In this document: positions 6,434 to 31,721 of the stretch, piece by piece | How the letters are laid out: each line of letters starts with the position of its first letter | Position numbering within the stretch: the stretch's first letter is position 1 | Assembly (NCBI GenBank): GCA_000092065.1 | Contig: CP000584.1 | Strand: one strand, 5' to 3' | DNA from: Ostreococcus lucimarinus | Taxonomy: Eukaryota | DNA length: 64,000 bases | The notes under the pieces: model-generated | Told to the model about the DNA's origin: nothing | What the model saw: only the letters and a program-made list of their open reading frames with translations | Databases searched by the model: none | Translations under genes and position numbers: made by a program

Positions 6434-7768
6434 TCATTTCGTGGCGTACAGGTCTATCATTGTCGAGAATCGCTCGCGCGGTGGGGGTGGTTCTTCAAGG
6501 GGGTCAAAGCCAAAATATTCGCGCAGCTGTCCTATCACTTCTTCGCGCACATCTAGTTCCGGCCACGCGCGCAAGAAGCGGTTCACCGTAGGCGTGAGCT
6601 CGCGTAGCGACACGTAGCCGTCTCGTTGATGTGACAGTGCGATTTGGACGATCAATTCCACCGCGCTGACGTACATTCGTTGCCAATCGACGACGTAATG
6701 CGCTGAATCGGGCGCGCCGTGATCTTGCGCGTATCGCAAACATTCAATCTCGTTCACATAGGCGGCAGCACCGCACGTCAACTCGTCCCAGCGACACCCG
6801 TGCTCGTGTGCGTACTTCAAACACTCCAAATGTCCTTTTTCAGCGGCATTCTGGCACGTCTCTTCGTTCCAAGGACACCCGCGCTCGTGCAAGTACTTCA
6901 AACACTCCAAATGTCCATTCGAAGCGGCATACGCGCACATTTCCTCGTATAAAGGACACCCGCGCTCGTACGCGTACTTCAAACACTCCAAATGTCCATT
7001 CTCGGCGGCAGCACCGCACGTCTCCTCGTTCCAAGGACACCCGTGCTCGTGCGCGTACTTCAAACACTCCAAATGTCCATTCTCGGCGGCATTCGCGCAC
7101 GTCAAGTCGCTCCAATCACACCCGCGCTCGCGCGCGTACTTCAAACATTCCAACTGTCCACTCATGGCGGCACTCGCGCACGTCTCCCAGTTCCACTCGT
7201 ACCCGAGCTCGAGCGCCAACCGCAAGAGTTCCAAGTCTCCGAGAAACGCCGCGCACGCCGGCACCGCCGCGCTCGTCGCAATCACAGCCGTCCCGACACG
7301 TGCGAGCGCGTCCAGACCATGATCCGCCCGATATACCGCATAATCATCCTCGTTCTCCACCGCCTCGAGCCTCATCGCCGCGAACGCCCGTCGCAACCGC
7401 CGCCTCGCGCGCGCCGCGCTCGCGCGCTCCATCGCCGCCGCGCCGCCGTCGATGTCGACCGTCTCGGAGTGCGCGACGCCAACCGTCGCGTCGAAAAAGG
7501 CGCAAAAAATCGCCTTTAAAAGGTCCGTGTTGCGATACGAATCGTCACGATTTTCCCGCCCGAAACGCACTTTTTTAAAAAGTGACGTTGACGCGAATCG
7601 ACGACGACGCGGCGTCGCCACGCGCGCGCGCGGAATCGAACGGGACGACGCGCTCGAGATGCACCGCGCCGCCATCGCGCTGACGTTCGCCGCGCCGTCG
7701 CCGCTCGCGCGACGACGCACGATCGACGCGACGCCCGCGGATGCGCCCGCGGCGGCGCAAAGACACAT
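6434..7768 (-). CDS. Ankyrin-like repeat protein with six 27-residue GHLECLKYAHEHGCPW-type repeats and a unique C-terminal domain
   Basis: The long ORF starts at a true ATG at 7768. An internal ATG at 7432 (MERASAARARRRL) is the more likely start, because 7500..7600 is AT-rich and promoter-like. Repeats: C..AA..GHLECLKYA.E.GC.W.E.T x6. Confidence 0.7.
   Translation of the reverse strand: MCLCAAAGASAGVASIVRRRASGDGAANVSAMAARCISSASSRSIPRARVATPRRRRFASTSLFKKVRFGRENRDDSYRNTDLLKAIFCAFFDATVGVAHSETVDIDGGAAAMERASAARARRRLRRAFAAMRLEAVENEDDYAVYRADHGLDALARVGTAVIATSAAVPACAAFLGDLELLRLALELGYEWNWETCASAAMSGQLECLKYARERGCDWSDLTCANAAENGHLECLKYAHEHGCPWNEETCGAAAENGHLECLKYAYERGCPLYEEMCAYAASNGHLECLKYLHERGCPWNEETCQNAAEKGHLECLKYAHEHGCRWDELTCGAAAYVNEIECLRYAQDHGAPDSAHYVVDWQRMYVSAVELIVQIALSHQRDGYVSLRELTPTVNRFLRAWPELDVREEVIGQLREYFGFDPLEEPPPPRERFSTMIDLYATK
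6722..7207 (-). repeat. Coding tandem array, 6 x 81 bp
   Basis: The block gtacttcaaacactccaaatgtcc recurs at 6812, 6893, 6974 and 7055. Diverged copies lie at 6731 and 7136, exactly 81 bp apart. This explains the out-of-frame track ORFs 6719..6952, 6808..7578, 6840..7115 and 6992..7519. Confidence 0.9.
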
Positions 7769-7844: not shown

Positions 7845-8126
7845 ATGACGGATGAATTGGTGGTGTACGCGCTGGATGAGTTCGGGGGGACGCGAAGGCG
7901 CGAACGACGACGACGAGGGACGCGGGAGGGGACGACGCGCGGGACGCTCGACGGTTTGAGCGCGCGGACGAGACGCGCGAGCGAAGAAAAGGCGACGCGC
8001 GTGATGACGTGGCGCGTGGGCGCGGAAGCGCACGCGCAGACGGCGACGTTGGGGTTGTTGACGACGCCGAGAACGCGCGCGGGGACGCGACGGTCGAACG
8101 CAAACTTGCGGGCGTTGTTCGACTAG
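7845..8126 (+). CDS. Possible small hypothetical protein (93 aa)
   Basis: An ATG inside track ORF 7452..8126 gives MTDELVVYALDEFGG... The stop is followed by an AT-rich, terminator-like island at 8221..8300 shared with the convergent ORF 8350..9162. The protein is low-complexity and Arg-rich, with no recognisable family. Confidence 0.25.
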   Translation: MTDELVVYALDEFGGTRRRERRRRGTREGTTRGTLDGLSARTRRASEEKATRVMTWRVGAEAHAQTATLGLLTTPRTRAGTRRSNANLRALFD

Positions 8127-8349
8127 ACGGCGGGCGACAGCTGGCGAGACGTCGAATCGCGGGGAACGCGTCGACGTCCGATCGCGTCGACGTCCGATCG
8201 CGCGCGCGTCGGTGCGTGCGCTAGAAAACCTAATATGTATACAGCAACTGAATGGCTAGAATGTACTAGAATTTTGTCTCAATAAGAAAAAGGTACCGTA
8301 ACACCCCTCGCGGGTCTCGTCGCTCGAACGCCGCGCTTCGCGTCGCGAA

Positions 8350-9162
8350 TCAGACGATCACCTCTCCCGTCTCCTCGCGAATCACCGCCGCGATGTGCGC
8401 TTTCGAAACCGATCGATTCGACGGCGACGACGTCCACCGCGTGCCGTCGACCGCGCGCGCGTGCTCGAGGCGCGCCGTCGCTCGTCTCGCGACGTCCCTC
8501 GCGCGCGCCCTCGCCGCCGCCGCCAAAACTTTCCCCACGTCCGCGCGCACCCGCATTCCGCGCGCCATCCCTCGACTCACCACCGCTAATCTCGCGCGCA
8601 ATCGCGCCGCCGTGAGCGCTCCTCCCGTGGCGTCTCGACTCGCTTTCGATTCGCCCAGCGGCGCGCCCAGCGCCGTCCGCGTCTCGCTCGCCTTCCCCGC
8701 TCTCTCCGCCCGTCGGCTCCGTTTCTTCGTCACAACCGTCGCGAATCCGCTCCCGATCGCTCGTCGCACCGCGCCGCCATCGCTCGCGCGTCTCCGCGCG
8801 TCTTCGTTCGTCTTCGTCTCGCCCTCGTTCCCGCGTCGTCGTCCCGCGTCGTCCTCGTCCGCAGCCTCCGCGCCCGCTCGCGCCGCGCTCGCGCGCACCG
8901 CGCGCGCCAGCGTCTCCATCAGCGTCGCGTGCGTCGCCATCGCGCTCCGCGACGCGCCGAACGCGCGCGCCGCCTCGTCGTCGACGCGTTTCCGTCCGCG
9001 CGCGAACGTCTCCGCGCCCATTCGCTGCGCGTCGTCGCACGCCGCGCGCACCGCGCGCCAGTACGCCGCGAGGCACGCGCCGCGCGTCGCGTCGTCGAGT
9101 CGCGCGCGCAGGTCGACGAGCGCGTCGCGCGCGCGCGCGCGCGCGTCGGGCGGGCGCGACAT
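8350..9162 (-). CDS. Hypothetical protein (270 aa)
   Basis: ATG-started ORF with balanced composition (D/E/K/W/Y present). The overlapping plus-strand reading (the 5' part of track ORF 8393..10930) is Ala/Ser/Arg/Pro shadow-like. It ends next to the AT-rich island at 8221..8300. No family recognised. Confidence 0.45.
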   Translation of the reverse strand: MSRPPDARARARDALVDLRARLDDATRGACLAAYWRAVRAACDDAQRMGAETFARGRKRVDDEAARAFGASRSAMATHATLMETLARAVRASAARAGAEAADEDDAGRRRGNEGETKTNEDARRRASDGGAVRRAIGSGFATVVTKKRSRRAERAGKASETRTALGAPLGESKASRDATGGALTAARLRARLAVVSRGMARGMRVRADVGKVLAAAARARARDVARRATARLEHARAVDGTRWTSSPSNRSVSKAHIAAVIREETGEVIV

Positions 9163-9319
9163 GCCGAGACGCCGCGTCGGCGAGTCGCGACACTACGCGA
9201 CGCCGCGCGGCGCCCGCGTCTCCCGCGCGCGCGACGACCGCGTCCGAGGGTCCGCGCGAGCGCTCGCGCGCGCCTCGACCGCGCGCGCGTCGTCTCGGCG
9301 CGCGGGAGCCGCGCGCGCG

Positions 9320-10930
9320 ATGGCGCTGACGTCGACGCGCGCGACGACGACGACGACGACGACGACGGCGCGCGACGACGCGCGACGACGACGCGCGCGA
9401 ACGACGCGAAAAAACGCGACGCGCGCGTTTCCCGCGCCGAGGGACGACGACGCGGCGACGACGACGGCGACGACGGCGCGGACGCGGAATCGAGGGCGGG
9501 CGCGGGTGAACGCGGGCGACGCGCTGCGAGGCTTGTGGAGAGAGATTAAGTATAAACCGCTGAGAGAGGATGAATCGATCGAGGCGGTGGCGCTGATGGC
9601 GGCGCTTGAACTGGCGCGACGAGGACCCGAACCGGGGGAGACGTGGACCGCGGAGCGAGAGGAGATGCGAGCGCGGGCGCGGGCGTCGATTCCGAGCGCG
9701 GTGGGGACGTATTGGCGAGCGAGGAGCGAGGCGCTGATTGAAAGTCAAGCGGTGCGGGACGCGGCGCCGTTGATGTCGAGCGCGGTGAACGTGGCGATCG
9801 CGGGGGTGGTGCTGCGGTTGTTTTTGCCGCGCGTCGCGGCGCTGCAAGCGGTGGGTGGGTTCGACGAGTTGACTGAATTTTTTGGGTTGCCGCCGAGGAG
9901 CGAGTTGAGCGGATATTTGGATCAGTTGCGAGCGTTGCCCGTGGCGGCGGTGTTCGCGGTGTACGTTGGGTTGTTCGTGGCGGAAAAGTTGACGATGACG
10001 GATGAGTTTTTGCCGATCGGCTTCGTGCTGCCCGTGGTGTCGCCGGTGGTGTTCGGCGGCGTCTTCGGAGGGACGATGGTGACGTCGCTGGCGAGCACGC
10101 TGGCGGCGAGCGTCAATTTCTTCCTCGCGCGGTACGTGTTGAAGGATAAGATATTAGGCTTTAAGTGGGGCGAAAGTGATCCCGTGGGCGAGCAAAAGTG
10201 GTTCGCCGCGCTGAGTCGAAGATTCGACTCGTCGCAATTCCCCGAGTCCACGGTGCCCGAGGGGTTCAAGTCGGCGCTCTTGCTCAGGCTGTGCCCGATT
10301 TTACCGATTCCGATAAGTGGGAACTGGTACGTGTGCGGGCTGACGCCTCTCAAATTCAAAGAGTTCTTCGCCGCGCACTTCATCGGAAGCTCGAAGACTG
10401 CGTTCATCGACGCGTATTTAGGTTCAATTTTGCTCACCGCGGTGTTCGACGAGTCATCCGTCAAGGACCAGGCGCAAGGCGCGCTCGTGTTCGAAACCGT
10501 CGCCATCATGGTTGTTTCCATCTTAGTCAGCACGTACGCCACGGAGCTCTTCACGCAGATTCTCGACGAAGAAGGCGTCGACGCGGGGGCGATGATGGGA
10601 TTCGGTTCGGAATCCAAAGACGAAGACGAAGGCGAAGACGCCGTCGACGCCACCGTCGCCTTCATCGCCGCCGCCGCCCTGCCCGTGGAACCAGCCGGCT
10701 CCACGGCGACGAGCGATGATGAACCGAAAGCCGACGACGACGAGAACGACGACGACGCCACGTCGAACGAACCTGAACTCATCCCAATCGAGCGCATGCC
10801 CGAGGATGAAAAAGTTTTAATCGCCGAAGGCGAAGCGCTCTGGCGACGCGCCGCGCGCGTCGAAGCCGAGCGTCAAAAGCTCACCATCGAAGAGATGACC
10901 GATTACGACTCCATGGGACCAGACATGTGA
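9320..10930 (+). CDS. TVP38/TMEM64 (DedA / SNARE-associated, VTT-domain) family membrane protein with a transit-peptide-like N-terminus and an acidic C-terminal tail
   Basis: The conserved part starts near 9530. The VTT-type motif is SALLLRLCPILPIPISGNWYVCGLTPLKFKEFFAAHFIGSSKTAFIDAYLGS, with several hydrophobic helices. I chose the in-frame ATG at 9320 (MALTSTRATTTT). The alternative ATG at 9161 would overlap the minus-strand ORF start. Confidence 0.65.
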   Translation: MALTSTRATTTTTTTTARDDARRRRARTTRKNATRAFPAPRDDDAATTTATTARTRNRGRARVNAGDALRGLWREIKYKPLREDESIEAVALMAALELARRGPEPGETWTAEREEMRARARASIPSAVGTYWRARSEALIESQAVRDAAPLMSSAVNVAIAGVVLRLFLPRVAALQAVGGFDELTEFFGLPPRSELSGYLDQLRALPVAAVFAVYVGLFVAEKLTMTDEFLPIGFVLPVVSPVVFGGVFGGTMVTSLASTLAASVNFFLARYVLKDKILGFKWGESDPVGEQKWFAALSRRFDSSQFPESTVPEGFKSALLLRLCPILPIPISGNWYVCGLTPLKFKEFFAAHFIGSSKTAFIDAYLGSILLTAVFDESSVKDQAQGALVFETVAIMVVSILVSTYATELFTQILDEEGVDAGAMMGFGSESKDEDEGEDAVDATVAFIAAAALPVEPAGSTATSDDEPKADDDENDDDATSNEPELIPIERMPEDEKVLIAEGEALWRRAARVEAERQKLTIEEMTDYDSMGPDM

Positions 10931-27526: not shown

Positions 27527-30019
27527 ATGTCCGCCGCGACGAAAGCCGCCGAGCGCGACGCCCTGGAGCGACTCCAGCGCGACGTGCGCAAGCACGCGCG
27601 CGACGAGAGCGTCGAGATCGATGCCGCGCGCGGCTGGCGCGTTACGTTTACCGAGCGCAAAACGGGCGCGCAAGCGGGGACATTTTACAAAGAGTTTTAC
27701 GCCCCCGACGGCACGCGGTTTCGAAGCGCCAAAGAAGTCTGCGCGCACGTCCAACAGATTCGAGGGATGAAGCGTAAAGCGCTGAAAGCGAGCGCGGGAT
27801 CGGGAAAGGAGAAAGGAAGCGGGAAGGGCGATGGAAAGGCGAAACGGGGGAGGCCGAGCGCGAGCGCGGAAACCGAGAACGAGGCGGACGCGCTGGAGAA
27901 ACTGTACGCGTACGTGAAGAACACGGCTGGTCGTGATATACGTCATCACGGTTGGGGCGTGGTGTTCGTGGAGCGGAAGTCGGGGGCGCTGGCTGGGCAG
28001 GTGTATAAAGACTACTTGACGCCGTGCGGGAACAAAGTACGGTCGATGAAGGAGGTGATGGTGTACTTGGCGGGGGTGAAGTCGCCGCAATCGAAAAAGA
28101 AGATTCGTCGTGACGATGGGAGCGTGGAGGAGGAGATGGAGGCGGAACCGACCGAGGCGGAGCTTCAAGCGTTGGAAATGAAGATTACAGAAGAGCACGC
28201 GGCGGCGATTACCAGAGCCGTGCCAGCGTTACCGGCGCGCACGCAATCCGTGCAAGTGACTGGCCTAGAATTAGACGATGATATGGATGAGGATCGGTTG
28301 CTTGTTGAATTTAGCAACATCACCGGACTCGAACCGGTGTATGAAACCTTGGAAGAGCTGCGGGAAATGGTGAATAAAGAGCGCGCTCGGGCGGCGGCGA
28401 AAAACGAGGCGATGGAGTTCAATTTCAAGCCGCCAACGACGCGCGCGCCGCGACCTTCTCTCGAAGCGCTGCCAAATGGGCTGAGCTACGCCGCGAAGGA
28501 AGTCGATGAGACGAAGAAGGCGGATCAGTTGGCGTTAATTCAACGCTTTCAGAAGGAAAGCAAAATCATGAATAAGCTTGGAGATGCTTCCAAAGCCGAT
28601 TGGAGAGGTGAAGCGCGCGTACCGAAAGTTTTGGGAGACACATCGGTTCCGGATGTTGTGCGTGGGGGTACGCGCGCCGGAGCGACGCCCATGATTGCGG
28701 GAACGGCGGCGGAAATCAAACTTTTACCGAGCACGACTGAGATTGATTACGACGGCGCTGAGGACAGGCCTCCGTTCGATCCCACTGATACGAGCTCGGT
28801 GACGACGCTCAAGGCAGCCATGCATACATCAACGGCGCCGGATGAAGTGCGGTGTCGCGAAGATGAGCGCGCGAAAGTGATCGATTTGATTCAAGGGTGC
28901 TTGCGTGATCACAAACCGGGCAGTCTGTATCTCGCCGGACTGCCAGGGACGGGGAAAACACTCACGCTCAAAGACGTTCAGAGAACAACGGAAAGATGGG
29001 GTATCGTAGGTAAGACTCGACCCCGTGTAGCTTTCATCAACTGCATGTCCGTGCACAACGCCAAAGATATTTTTGGAGTCGTTTTAGATCAACTTGGCGA
29101 AAGAGTTGCATCTGAAGACCGAGCGCCAAGCGTGGGATCCATAGAATACAGCAATATCCCAGAAGTCGTGGCGTTGAGAAGAGTAGTGACTTCGATGAAC
29201 GGTGGAATGTGCATCATTCTGCTCGATGAGATGGATCAACTCGAAACACGAGATCAAGAGGTTTTGTACGAGCTGTTTGCTTTGCCCGCACTCAAGGGAT
29301 CACGATGCGTTTTAGCGGGAGTCTCCAACGCGATCAATCTCACCGATCGCGTGCTGCCTAGATTGCGCGCTCGTGGATGCGAGCCTGCACTCGTAACGTT
29401 TTCTGCGTACGATGCCAAGCAGCTCAAGGTATTGCTGAAACAGCGCCTCGCGGCGCTTCCATTCAAGGCTTTCGAGGACTCTGCGTTGGAATTGTGTTCG
29501 CGGAAAGTAGGCGCGGCGACGGGCGACATGCGAAAGGCGCTCAACGTGTGCGCCACCGCCGTCGACATATGCGTGCAAGAAGCGACGAAGATCTCAGAGG
29601 ATGGTAGCGAAGCGCCCGCCTCGGCCAAGGGCACTGTGAAGATTTCCCACATGGCGCGCGCGCTTTCAAAAACGTACGCATCGCCAGTCGTGGACTCAAT
29701 CCGGGCATTGCCGCAAATGCAACAGATGGTCCTGTGTTCGGCGATAAAACTTTTGAGCAGTACGCACGCCATGGAGACGACGTTAGGGGCTTTGCATGAT
29801 CGATACGTCATCACTTGCAAGACAGCCGGTGTCAAGGATCTATCTCAAGGTGAGTTCCACAACATGTGCAGCGCGCTCTCGGATCATTGTTTGGTTAAGA
29901 TTGGGAATGCGAGTAACGATCGATTGCGCAAGCTACGATTGCTCGCCACGCGAGATGATGTGGAGTTTTCACTCCAAGGTGTGAACTTCTTCCGCAACTT
30001 ATTAGGGATCAACGAGTAG
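27527..30019 (+). CDS. ORC1/CDC6-family AAA+ replication initiator with two N-terminal MBD-like domains and an AT-hook (830 aa)
   Basis: Single uninterrupted ATG ORF. The C-terminal half has SLYLAGLPGTGKT (Walker A, about 28936..28959), ILLDEMDQL (Walker B), VSNAINLTDRVLPRL, GDMRKALNVC (sensor 2) and a winged-helix tail. Features of both CDC6 (DEMDQL) and ORC1 (KAFEDSALELCSRKV) are present. The N-terminal modules are listed as separate features. Confidence 0.85.
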   Translation: MSAATKAAERDALERLQRDVRKHARDESVEIDAARGWRVTFTERKTGAQAGTFYKEFYAPDGTRFRSAKEVCAHVQQIRGMKRKALKASAGSGKEKGSGKGDGKAKRGRPSASAETENEADALEKLYAYVKNTAGRDIRHHGWGVVFVERKSGALAGQVYKDYLTPCGNKVRSMKEVMVYLAGVKSPQSKKKIRRDDGSVEEEMEAEPTEAELQALEMKITEEHAAAITRAVPALPARTQSVQVTGLELDDDMDEDRLLVEFSNITGLEPVYETLEELREMVNKERARAAAKNEAMEFNFKPPTTRAPRPSLEALPNGLSYAAKEVDETKKADQLALIQRFQKESKIMNKLGDASKADWRGEARVPKVLGDTSVPDVVRGGTRAGATPMIAGTAAEIKLLPSTTEIDYDGAEDRPPFDPTDTSSVTTLKAAMHTSTAPDEVRCREDERAKVIDLIQGCLRDHKPGSLYLAGLPGTGKTLTLKDVQRTTERWGIVGKTRPRVAFINCMSVHNAKDIFGVVLDQLGERVASEDRAPSVGSIEYSNIPEVVALRRVVTSMNGGMCIILLDEMDQLETRDQEVLYELFALPALKGSRCVLAGVSNAINLTDRVLPRLRARGCEPALVTFSAYDAKQLKVLLKQRLAALPFKAFEDSALELCSRKVGAATGDMRKALNVCATAVDICVQEATKISEDGSEAPASAKGTVKISHMARALSKTYASPVVDSIRALPQMQQMVLCSAIKLLSSTHAMETTLGALHDRYVITCKTAGVKDLSQGEFHNMCSALSDHCLVKIGNASNDRLRKLRLLATRDDVEFSLQGVNFFRNLLGINE
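27551..27757 (+). other. MBD-like module 1 (residues about 9-77)
   Basis: GWRVTFTERKTGAQAGTFYKEFYAPDGTRFRSAKEVCAHV compared with MeCP2 [40 protein letters not shown]. Confidence 0.65.
27842..27856 (+). other. AT-hook core KRGRP
   Basis: GKAKRGRPSAS lies between the two MBD-like modules. Confidence 0.5.
27881..28075 (+). other. MBD-like module 2 (residues about 119-183)
   Basis: GWGVVFVERKSGALAGQVYKDYLTPCGNKVRSMKEVMVYL. It is preceded by EADALEKLYAYV, which parallels ERDALERLQRDV before module 1. Confidence 0.65.
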
Positions 30020-31082: not shown

Positions 31083-31721
31083 TTAGTGGGCGAGGATTTC
31101 GCGCACGTACTTGTACGAGTTACTCCACACAGCCTTGCAAAGATCGATGGGCAAGCACTCTTGTTTGTTCTTGATGTTCTTGTCCGCACCATTTTGTAGC
31201 AAGAGATTGACGATTTCCACGTGTCCACGCATCGCCGCCCAGTGCAGCGCGGTGTTGTCGCCCATATCCAGCGCGTCCACGTCCGCGCCTTGCTCGAGCA
31301 TGAACTTCACCGTGTGATAGTGTCCGTTGTGCGCCGCGCGCTGCAACCCAGTATCTTTCATCAATCCGCTCTGTTGAATGTCAGCGCCTTCGTTGAGCAA
31401 CAGTTCGACAACCTTCGTGTGCCCGTTGCCCGCCGCGAGCACGAGCGGAGGATCCCCGCAGTGGTCGCACTCGTTAATCGGCGCGCCTTCGTGGATGTGC
31501 TCCTTCACCCAGTCGTAATAGCCATCGACGCAGTCGCGCCAAATATTGGATTTTTCCGGGATGAATCGTCCGGTCTGCGATGCGTTCGCGTTCGTTCGTC
31601 AGTCGTCGACTCGGGAATCGCGCACGAGGGGCCTCGGACGCGCGGACGCGATCCAGCGTCGTCGCCTTTGCGCGCCTTCGCCCGCGTCGCGAGTTTCACG
31701 CACCACGAGGTCGAACGGCAT
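31083..31721 (-). CDS. Small canonical ankyrin-repeat protein, complement(join(31083..31574,31704..31721)), 169 aa
   Basis: 33-residue ANK repeats (GDPPLVLAAGNGHTKVVELLLNEGADI.., DTGLQRAAHNGHYHTVKFMLEQGADV.., GDNTALHWAAMRGHVEIVNLLLQNGADK). The track ORF starts at GTG, and the frame stays open upstream to a CAG acceptor at 31575..31577. An 18-nt exon ATGCCGTTCGACCTCGTG followed by GTGCGT fits in phase 0. Confidence 0.6.
31575..31703 (-). other. Spliceosomal intron (ankyrin gene, 129 nt)
   Basis: On the minus strand: GTGCGT donor at 31703, ACTGAC at 31603..31598, CAG acceptor at 31577..31575. Confidence 0.55.

Follow-up and report, generated by a model that had tools for sequence, protein, structure and literature searches.

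The locus reported here has a described parallel in the NOD-like receptors (NLRs) of fungi, whose ANK, TPR and WD repeat domains vary in repeat number, evolve in concert and are under positive selection at surface positions (Dyrka et al. 2014, PMC4986451). Our subject is a gene of the green alga Ostreococcus lucimarinus, annotated at 6434..7375 on the minus strand of a 64,000-nucleotide stretch of contig CP000584.1 (assembly GCA_000092065.1; the whole stretch is hereafter the window), which encodes a tandem array of 27-residue ankyrin-like units followed by an unrelated C-terminal domain. With the fungal receptors (Podospora het-e/nwd; PMC4986451) it has in common differences in repeat number between wild isolates, concerted evolution with reshuffling of units within and possibly between paralogs, and amino-acid variation concentrated, in each unit, at a small number of sites predicted to lie on the binding surface. 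It differs from them in belonging to a green alga, in the 27-residue length of the repeat, and in carrying no N-terminal effector domain; because neither NACHT nor NB-ARC is detected (Pfam, expectation value [E]≤10), the gene is not an NLR. Hypervariability at a single syntenic locus is unreported in the literature searched; the assignment to the ankyrin fold is itself ordinary.

Ankyrin repeat number reportedly also differs between close strains of Wolbachia, where – as Siozios and colleagues are said to have described in 2013 – a role in host interaction is suspected. Those proteins are bacterial effector candidates built from canonical 33-residue repeats, whereas the present gene is algal and its repeat has 27 residues.

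Protists and giant viruses, genomes of pandoravirus size among them, also have expanded short-ankyrin gene families. In the Mamiellales one such family, HOM000035, has no known function and according to the Bathycoccus genome paper numbers 149 members in Bathycoccus and 17 in O. lucimarinus (PMC3491373); Bodo saltans virus carries 148 ankyrin genes, read as an arms-race "accordion" (PMC5871332). Like the gene studied here, the short-ankyrin families have a 27-residue unit, and the consensus is near-identical (NGHLECLKYAHENGCPWxxxTCxxAA). Their diversity (HOM000035 included) has been described as expansion in gene copies, whereas here it is allelic, in unit number and surface residues at one syntenic locus; moreover, the C-terminal domain is found only in this gene and one paralog. 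At most, the gene is a possible member of HOM000035.

An in-frame array of 81-bp units

At 6772..7195, Tandem Repeats Finder detects an 81-bp periodicity (5.2 copies, 81% matches, 0% indels, score 533). The array lies in frame with the open reading frame (ORF) on the minus strand and its period is exactly 27 amino acids. Read in a 27-codon register, it begins with a degenerate unit 1 (7249..7169, minus strand; AFLGDLELLRLALELGYEWNWETCASA), which by register and by the AlphaFold2 (AF2) model forms the N-terminal cap, continues through five conserved internal units (units 2–6; 7168..6764, minus strand), whose number and content vary among alleles, and ends with the start of a diverged capping unit 7 (6763..6716, minus strand; AYVNEIECLRYAQDHG), for which AF2 predicts a helix pair at residues 217–225 and 229–237. 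The consensus of the internal units is A-x-x-G-H-L-E-C-L-K-Y-A-x-E-x-G-C-x-W-x-x-x-T-C-x-x-A.

The first-pass annotation of the window, made from the sequence alone, had described the array as near-perfect, with a 24-nucleotide block recurring at four positions and in diverged copies at 6731 and 7136. The array is real and in frame; "near-perfect" is too strong, since pairwise identity among the internal units of the window is 74–89% for DNA and 59–85% for protein, the latter falling short of the >85% amino-acid identity that is the criterion for fungal repeats. The 24-nucleotide block (GTACTTCAAACACTCCAAATGTCC), which encodes G-H-L-E-C-L-K-Y, occurs exactly at 6812, 6893, 6974 and 7055 (span 6812..7078) and with two mismatches at 7136; in 100 of 100 shuffles it found no match. 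The copy claimed at 6731 has more than three mismatches and keeps only its register within the diverged last unit. The longest exact internal repeat measures 40 nucleotides in the window allele and 24–76 nucleotides in other alleles.

Recent expansion and ongoing concerted evolution had both been offered as reasons for the likeness of the units. The first fits in part: synonymous divergence between units in the window (~0.2–0.3) is well above the allelic synonymous divergence (dS) of neighbouring genes (0.02–0.06), although some alleles hold pairs of units with 95–96% DNA identity. Concerted evolution is supported, in that 10 of the 16 scaffold codons (codons 4, 6 and 8–11 among them) are represented by a single codon across all 19 distinct units.

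Alleles differ by whole units at one syntenic locus

Homologs with near-identical N- and C-terminal parts differ in length by steps of 27 residues. These alleles come from short-read metagenome assemblies, most of them on MEGAHIT-style k127/k141 contigs from mixed populations. Four contigs (L001–L004) are syntenic with the window, the array being flanked by genes for VTT-domain, DOT1-like and 1176-amino-acid proteins on one side and by genes for a methyltransferase and exportin-5 on the other. Two of the four (L001 and L002) are 99.2–99.4% identical to the window over ~17 kb and depart from it in structure solely by lacking whole 81-bp units.

The 42 proteins obtained from the locus comprise 27 distinct arrays, with four units in 12 proteins, five in 5, six in 1 and seven in 24. 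The reading frame is kept in every one of the 42 alleles and array length modulo 27 is constant. Identical units are found at differing ordinal positions in different alleles; one protein (P0002) equals that of the window minus exactly one unit, with the breakpoint inside an identical stretch that spans the 24-nucleotide block (units 2 and 3). In a five-haplotype alignment nucleotide diversity (pi) is 0.10–0.13 at positions 6800–7199 as against ~0.01 over most of 13 kb, a ~10-fold excess, the array figure being inflated for a reason taken up in the Discussion. The locus is single-copy, syntenic and highly polymorphic in wild O. lucimarinus: the copy-number polymorphism that had been expected from the sequence is found as syntenic alleles with four to seven units, and repeat-number polymorphism within a species, of the kind seen in fungal NLRs, is present in the metagenome assemblies.

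The repeat is an ankyrin core without the hairpin

Five profiles of the Pfam ankyrin clan (CL0465) match the protein with bit scores above their cut-offs (in brackets): Ank_4, 63.7 (22.7); Ank_2, 63.8 (27.3); Ank_5, 46.1 (27); Ank_3, 34.3 (22.3); and Ank, 30.5 (21.1). E-values are 1.5e-17 for Ank_4 and 2.2e-17 for Ank_2. The single-repeat Ank profile is matched over positions 8–29 of 33 alone, that is, over the helix-turn-helix core. A phmmer search of PDB sequences matched the consensus-designed ankyrins 4o60, 4qfv and 1n0r, and the alignments to 4o60 and 4qfv, which have 33-residue repeats, contain ~6 gap positions per unit, placed after helix 2 of one unit and ahead of helix 1 of the next. 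The period is 27 rather than 33 because about six hairpin or loop residues are absent from each unit.

An AF2 model built with 60 homologs (mean predicted local distance difference test score [pLDDT] 80, with the repeats mostly >90; predicted template modelling score [pTM] 0.75) consists of seven pairs of 9-residue helices, connected by turns of three residues and loops of six; no strand is assigned by DSSP. When the PDB was searched with Foldseek, the top 50 matches were ankyrin proteins without exception, at a probability of 1.00 in every case. Significant profile matches and, in the predicted model, antiparallel stacked helix pairs agree in portraying the gene product as a soluble alpha-solenoid of the ankyrin type, built from seven helix-turn-helix units. 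The first-pass description – an ankyrin helix-turn-helix core without the beta-hairpin – is supported by these results, and the profile and structure analyses, either of which could have pointed to an unrelated fold, both returned ankyrin.

Comparison with canonical 33-residue ankyrins (1N0R, 4O60 and the designed ankyrin repeat proteins, or DARPins) shows the same stacked helix-turn-helix pairs and the same AAxxGHLExL(K)xL and ExG motifs. As to differences, the period is 27, and in place of the beta-hairpin and long loop the model has 6-residue loops and no strand. The TPLH motif is replaced by T23-C24-x25-x26, in which 34 of 42 distinct units retain the T and every one has the C, whereas positions 25 and 26 are the most variable of the unit (2.6 bits each). 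Conserved cysteines occupy unit positions 8, 17 and 24 and a conserved tryptophan position 19. A canonical gene within the window provides the contrast that had been drawn in the first-pass annotation: it is real (31083..31508, minus strand; 33-residue spacing; Ank_2 E=6e-37), but the range originally given for it, to 31721, crosses an in-frame stop. Past 31508 the frame is open only across that stop; an upstream exon is possible, or the range was simply too long.

Variation is confined to a few positions of the unit

Among 42 distinct internal units entropy is 0 at positions 1, 4, 6, 7, 9–11, 14, 24 and 27, and lies between 1 and 2.6 bits at positions 2, 3, 5, 13, 15, 18, 20, 21, 22, 25 and 26. 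Amino-acid variation is limited to ~11 of the 27 positions, while scaffold residues, together with their codons, are frozen. Mapped onto the predicted model, positions 21, 22, 25, 26 and 2 would share a single face of helix 1, with positions 18 and 20 in the loop and helix 2 invariant; alignment to consensus ankyrins suggests that the variable face corresponds to the canonical ankyrin ligand-binding groove. Positions 2, 3, 15 and 22 presumably correspond to the randomised DARPin positions 13, 14, 26 and 33, an equivalence that we draw from the phmmer alignments and from the DARPin design.

A neutral alternative to diversifying selection is that the array is a coding minisatellite which drifts in unit number by slippage and unequal exchange, with unconstrained surface residues and no recognition role. 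Between units the ratio of nonsynonymous to synonymous divergence (dN/dS, Nei-Gojobori) is 1.2–1.4 for variable codons, 0.2 for scaffold codons and 0.7–0.85 for whole units, a contrast between codon classes that is partly circular because the classes were picked by amino-acid variability. Between seven-unit alleles dN/dS of the internal array is 0.9–1.4, compared with 0.12–0.31 in neighbouring genes. Values near 1 in the array are what the neutral account anticipates, and 81-bp tandem units that contain exact repeats of 24–76 nucleotides are intrinsically unstable. Nonetheless, the scaffold fits that account poorly: frame and scaffold are kept in all 42 alleles, and the synonymous sites of the scaffold are frozen while variable codons adjacent to them differ by up to 0.5–0.6 per site.

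A count of polymorphic codons in the five haplotypes is not subject to the circularity of codon choice. The N-terminal non-repeated segment (7250..7432, minus strand; 61 codons if translation starts at M113), which is helical in the AF2 model (helices 2–26 and 30–44) and for which 33 distinct protein variants were recovered, contains no codon with synonymous differences only and ten with amino-acid-changing differences (dN/dS 17). The corresponding counts are 0 and 5 for unit 1 (dN/dS 3.3), 3 and 5 for the C-terminal domain (dN/dS 0.64), and 96 and 41 for five neighbouring genes (dN/dS 0.12–0.29). Taken together, the N-terminal segment and unit 1 (0 vs 15) differ from the five neighbours with P=8e-8 (Fisher). 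Slippage cannot alter these non-repeated 61 codons and unit 1, and although the C-terminal domain shows no significant excess over the neighbours (P=0.11), as neutrality would have it, we consider neutral repeat instability an unlikely explanation of the locus as a whole.

Pi has a second peak at 8600..9600 (0.04–0.09 with small indels, in the five haplotypes), in GC-rich low-complexity sequence that precedes the VTT-domain gene and extends into its beginning. That gene (coding sequence [CDS] from 9320) has 42 amino-acid-changing and 45 synonymous-only polymorphic codons, an unusually high share of the former.

A paralog, and contigs joined within the array

A paralog, which we call type B (P0032, P0198, P0021), occupies another locus between the genes for ribosomal protein L14 and 2-oxoglutarate dehydrogenase E1 (OGDH-E1). 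On contig L016 (3222–4301) it encodes 359 amino acids; its C-terminal domain is 66–67% identical to that of the gene studied here, and the first unit is also common to both. As at the main locus, the internal units of type B differ between metagenome alleles (P0021, P0032, P0087, P0088, P0111, P0117). These units are up to 91–93% identical in DNA to units of the present gene, while identity between the parts unique to either gene is no more than ~77%: the contrast is compatible with exchange between loci or with constraint at the nucleotide level.

The frozen scaffold codons of the array (6764..7168) mostly end in A or T (GGA, TTG, TGT, CAT, AAT) in a genome of ~62% G+C, and the scaffold block is common with the paralog in exact stretches of up to 53 nucleotides. 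Homogenisation, nucleotide-level constraint and foreign origin could each account for this.

A second and much more diverged 27-residue ankyrin gene lies in the window at 18932..19954 (minus strand; 34–41% identity to the repeat, Ank_4 E=0.013). Its C-terminal region is different and contains 'APEGAYIENC', resembling 'IPEGAYVTIC' at the C-terminus of the metagenome protein P0030, the N-terminal half of which is that of the ankyrin gene studied here.

Three further contigs are joined to other loci inside the array. In L015 (junction 8001–8882, corresponding to ~6970 in the window) the left flank of the present locus is followed by the right flank of the paralogous OGDH-E1 locus; in L017 (junction 7001–7651, ~6881 in the window) a GMP synthase and HSP20 region, and in L018 (junction 7001–7687, ~6930 in the window) a helicase and adh_short region, are followed by the right flank found here. 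They are either ectopic recombinants or assembly chimeras. In the latter case one might suppose that assemblers collapsed or mis-joined the repeats throughout and that the natural population is essentially monomorphic, a supposition to which the prevalence of k127/k141 contigs from mixed populations lends some colour. We judge it very improbable. The longest exact internal repeats are shorter than the final k-mers of 127 and 141 indicated by the contig names; the four-unit form is present in 12 proteins with nine distinct arrays and has private residues (for example CPWHELTC) unseen in seven-unit alleles; seven-unit arrays differ across sources and naming styles (ENA k127, ENA 'contig_N', JGI), and yet another seven-unit allele (P0188) is encoded on a second JGI contig of chromosome length (931,964 bp). 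Furthermore, the polymorphism of the N-terminal segment, which carries the strongest signal of selection, lies outside the repeats.

The C-terminal domain

The repeats are followed, as had been noted from the sequence, by an unrelated domain of about 90 residues: it comprises 93 amino acids (6715..6437, minus strand), is predicted to be helical, and is an orphan found only in the gene and its paralog. Its conserved core reads LIVQIALSxQRDGYVSLRELTPxVNxFLRAWPEL ... PRxRFSxMIxLYATK. When 1.84 billion representatives were searched exhaustively with phmmer, only five clusters matched, all of this gene or the paralog, and at E≤10 no Pfam family matches either the domain or its paralogous form. For the whole ORF, the same threshold yields ankyrin families and sub-threshold DUF5983 and zf-C3HC only, with no NACHT, NB-ARC, signalling or effector domain. 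An AF2 model of the last unit plus the C-terminal domain is of low confidence (pLDDT 62, pTM 0.39), and a fold search with so poor a model was uninformative. A tblastn match of the domain elsewhere in the window (27839..28075, E=0.003) was rejected as chance because it is antisense to a long plus-strand ORF (27527..30019).

By analogy with ASB, FEM1 and poxvirus ankyrin/PRANC proteins, which the order of an ankyrin array and a small helical C-terminal domain recalls, the product might be a substrate receptor of a cullin-type ubiquitin ligase, the array binding targets and the C-terminal domain recruiting the ligase, but this is most improbable: at E≤10 the domain has no match to SOCS-box, F-box, PRANC or BTB profiles, and S-L-R-E-L-T-P-T-V at the start of a predicted helix, which may bear a loose resemblance to a BC-box, leaves BC-box positions 6 (Cys) and 10 (hydrophobic) unmatched.

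The 27-residue class in protists and giant viruses

Homologs of the protein are numerous, with more than 4,295 significant matches. In the best 120 of them a motif spacing of 27 residues was recorded 424 times, far above any other value, and matches with 27-residue units include proteins of Bodo saltans virus and Balamuthia. The suggestion in the first-pass annotation that similar repeats occur in giant viruses proved correct: the same 27-residue repeats are present on contigs assigned to giant viruses, in genes with up to 18 units, none of the examined viral contigs being established as prasinovirus.

A census of ~1.2 million ankyrin repeats found deletions in 1.4%, typically of ≤3 residues (bioRxiv 10.1101/858845). 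Because deletions in the census are so rare and so short, a regular six-residue deletion is outside the described norm. In the literature searched, no paper describing a 27-residue ankyrin period was found, and likewise none for GHLECLKY-like motifs; nor is ankyrin mentioned where the population genomics of O. tauri and Bathycoccus is treated. Given the many matches, the lack of a paper on the period, and the census norm, the 27-residue class is abundant but under-described.

Two proteins from aphid records (P0092 and P0119; Rhopalosiphum maidis and Uroleucon formosanum) also score highly, with 35–50% identity, which is unexpected for animals. They could be viral or symbiont-derived insertions, or contamination.

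Gene model and overlapping reading frames

The maximal ORF in the ORF listing spans 6434..7768 (minus strand; 444 amino acids plus stop), while an exact-sequence match identifies the annotated CDS as 6434..7375 (minus strand), a 313-amino-acid 'predicted protein' of O. lucimarinus CCE9901 (XP_001417439.1 / ABO95732.1 / UniProt A4RVL5) with its start at the ATG at 7375 (minus strand). This NCBI model is the sole match: versions of 444, 413 and 332 amino acids are absent among exact-sequence records. The product of a neighbouring gene likewise matches a CCE9901 protein exactly (XP_001417163.1). Upstream in the maximal ORF an AT-rich stretch (7470..7580) appears to be intergenic, and because of it the first ~100 codons of the maximal ORF, upstream of ~7432, are probably noncoding. 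The true start is M132 (7375) or M113 (7432).

Several long ORFs in other frames overlap the array (6808..7578 and 6992..7519 on the plus strand; 6840..7115 on the minus strand), and are most likely by-products of the repeat and of high G+C. Their translations are periodic and rich in Arg, Ser, Thr and Pro; the plus-strand frames, these two and others, were rejected as by-products of periodic DNA.

Discussion

On balance we think it probable that the gene product serves in recognition and that shuffling of its repeats in register, together with diversifying selection, has made it variable. According to this hypothesis, whole units would be gained, lost and exchanged through unequal crossing-over, slippage or gene conversion, with the invariant tract of 24–40 nucleotides in each unit providing the homology that primes exchange, such that the scaffold is homogenised while units are reshuffled. 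The span of 24-nucleotide blocks at 6812..7078 is likely to be the homology tract for such in-register unequal exchange, and we propose that frame and fold are preserved because the tract primes exchange in register. Diversifying selection would act on one face of the inner helix, on the loop and on the N-terminal cap, while a constant, lineage-specific C-terminal domain would anchor the protein or signal. Selection located in the groove would imply a variable protein-protein recognition module joined to that constant domain. As to the selective agent, we can only speculate that it is biotic conflict: proteins of prasinoviruses or other parasites are the most plausible targets, with conspecific recognition as an alternative.

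Several points weigh against this hypothesis. The putative recognition role is read from sequence and a predicted model, and the structural mapping relies on that model plus a helical-wheel argument rather than on coordinates. No recognised signalling or effector domain accompanies the repeats at the Pfam threshold used. The chimeric contigs reflect mis-joins or real rearrangements at the array, and mosaics may be present among the contigs. Which units correspond by position in different alleles is uncertain, and for this reason pi of the array is inflated. Finally, besides the partial circularity of the unit-level dN/dS contrast, dN/dS near 1 in the array is equally expected under relaxed constraint.

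A broader reading is that the locus and its paralogs constitute an NLR-independent recognition system, hypervariable at the level of populations of a picoeukaryotic alga, in which in-register shuffling of 27-residue units within and between loci would generate new binding specificities that are kept by selection from prasinoviruses, other parasites or conspecifics. We put this forward tentatively, as a rather doubtful extension of the recognition hypothesis; if true, Mamiellophyceae would have a determinant of specificity beyond their known outlier chromosome of 'viral immunity'.

The 27-residue form runs counter to the published view that ankyrin repeats tolerate few deletions, and a solved structure of it would show what a minimal ankyrin unit is. 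In O. lucimarinus, an abundant primary producer of the sea, the determinants of virus specificity are poorly known. A single-copy, syntenic locus whose diversity is ~10 times that of its surroundings is a testable candidate for a determinant of host-parasite or self recognition: its repeat-number alleles and the strong excess of amino-acid polymorphism strengthen that candidacy, and the alleles can already be tracked in ocean metagenomes.

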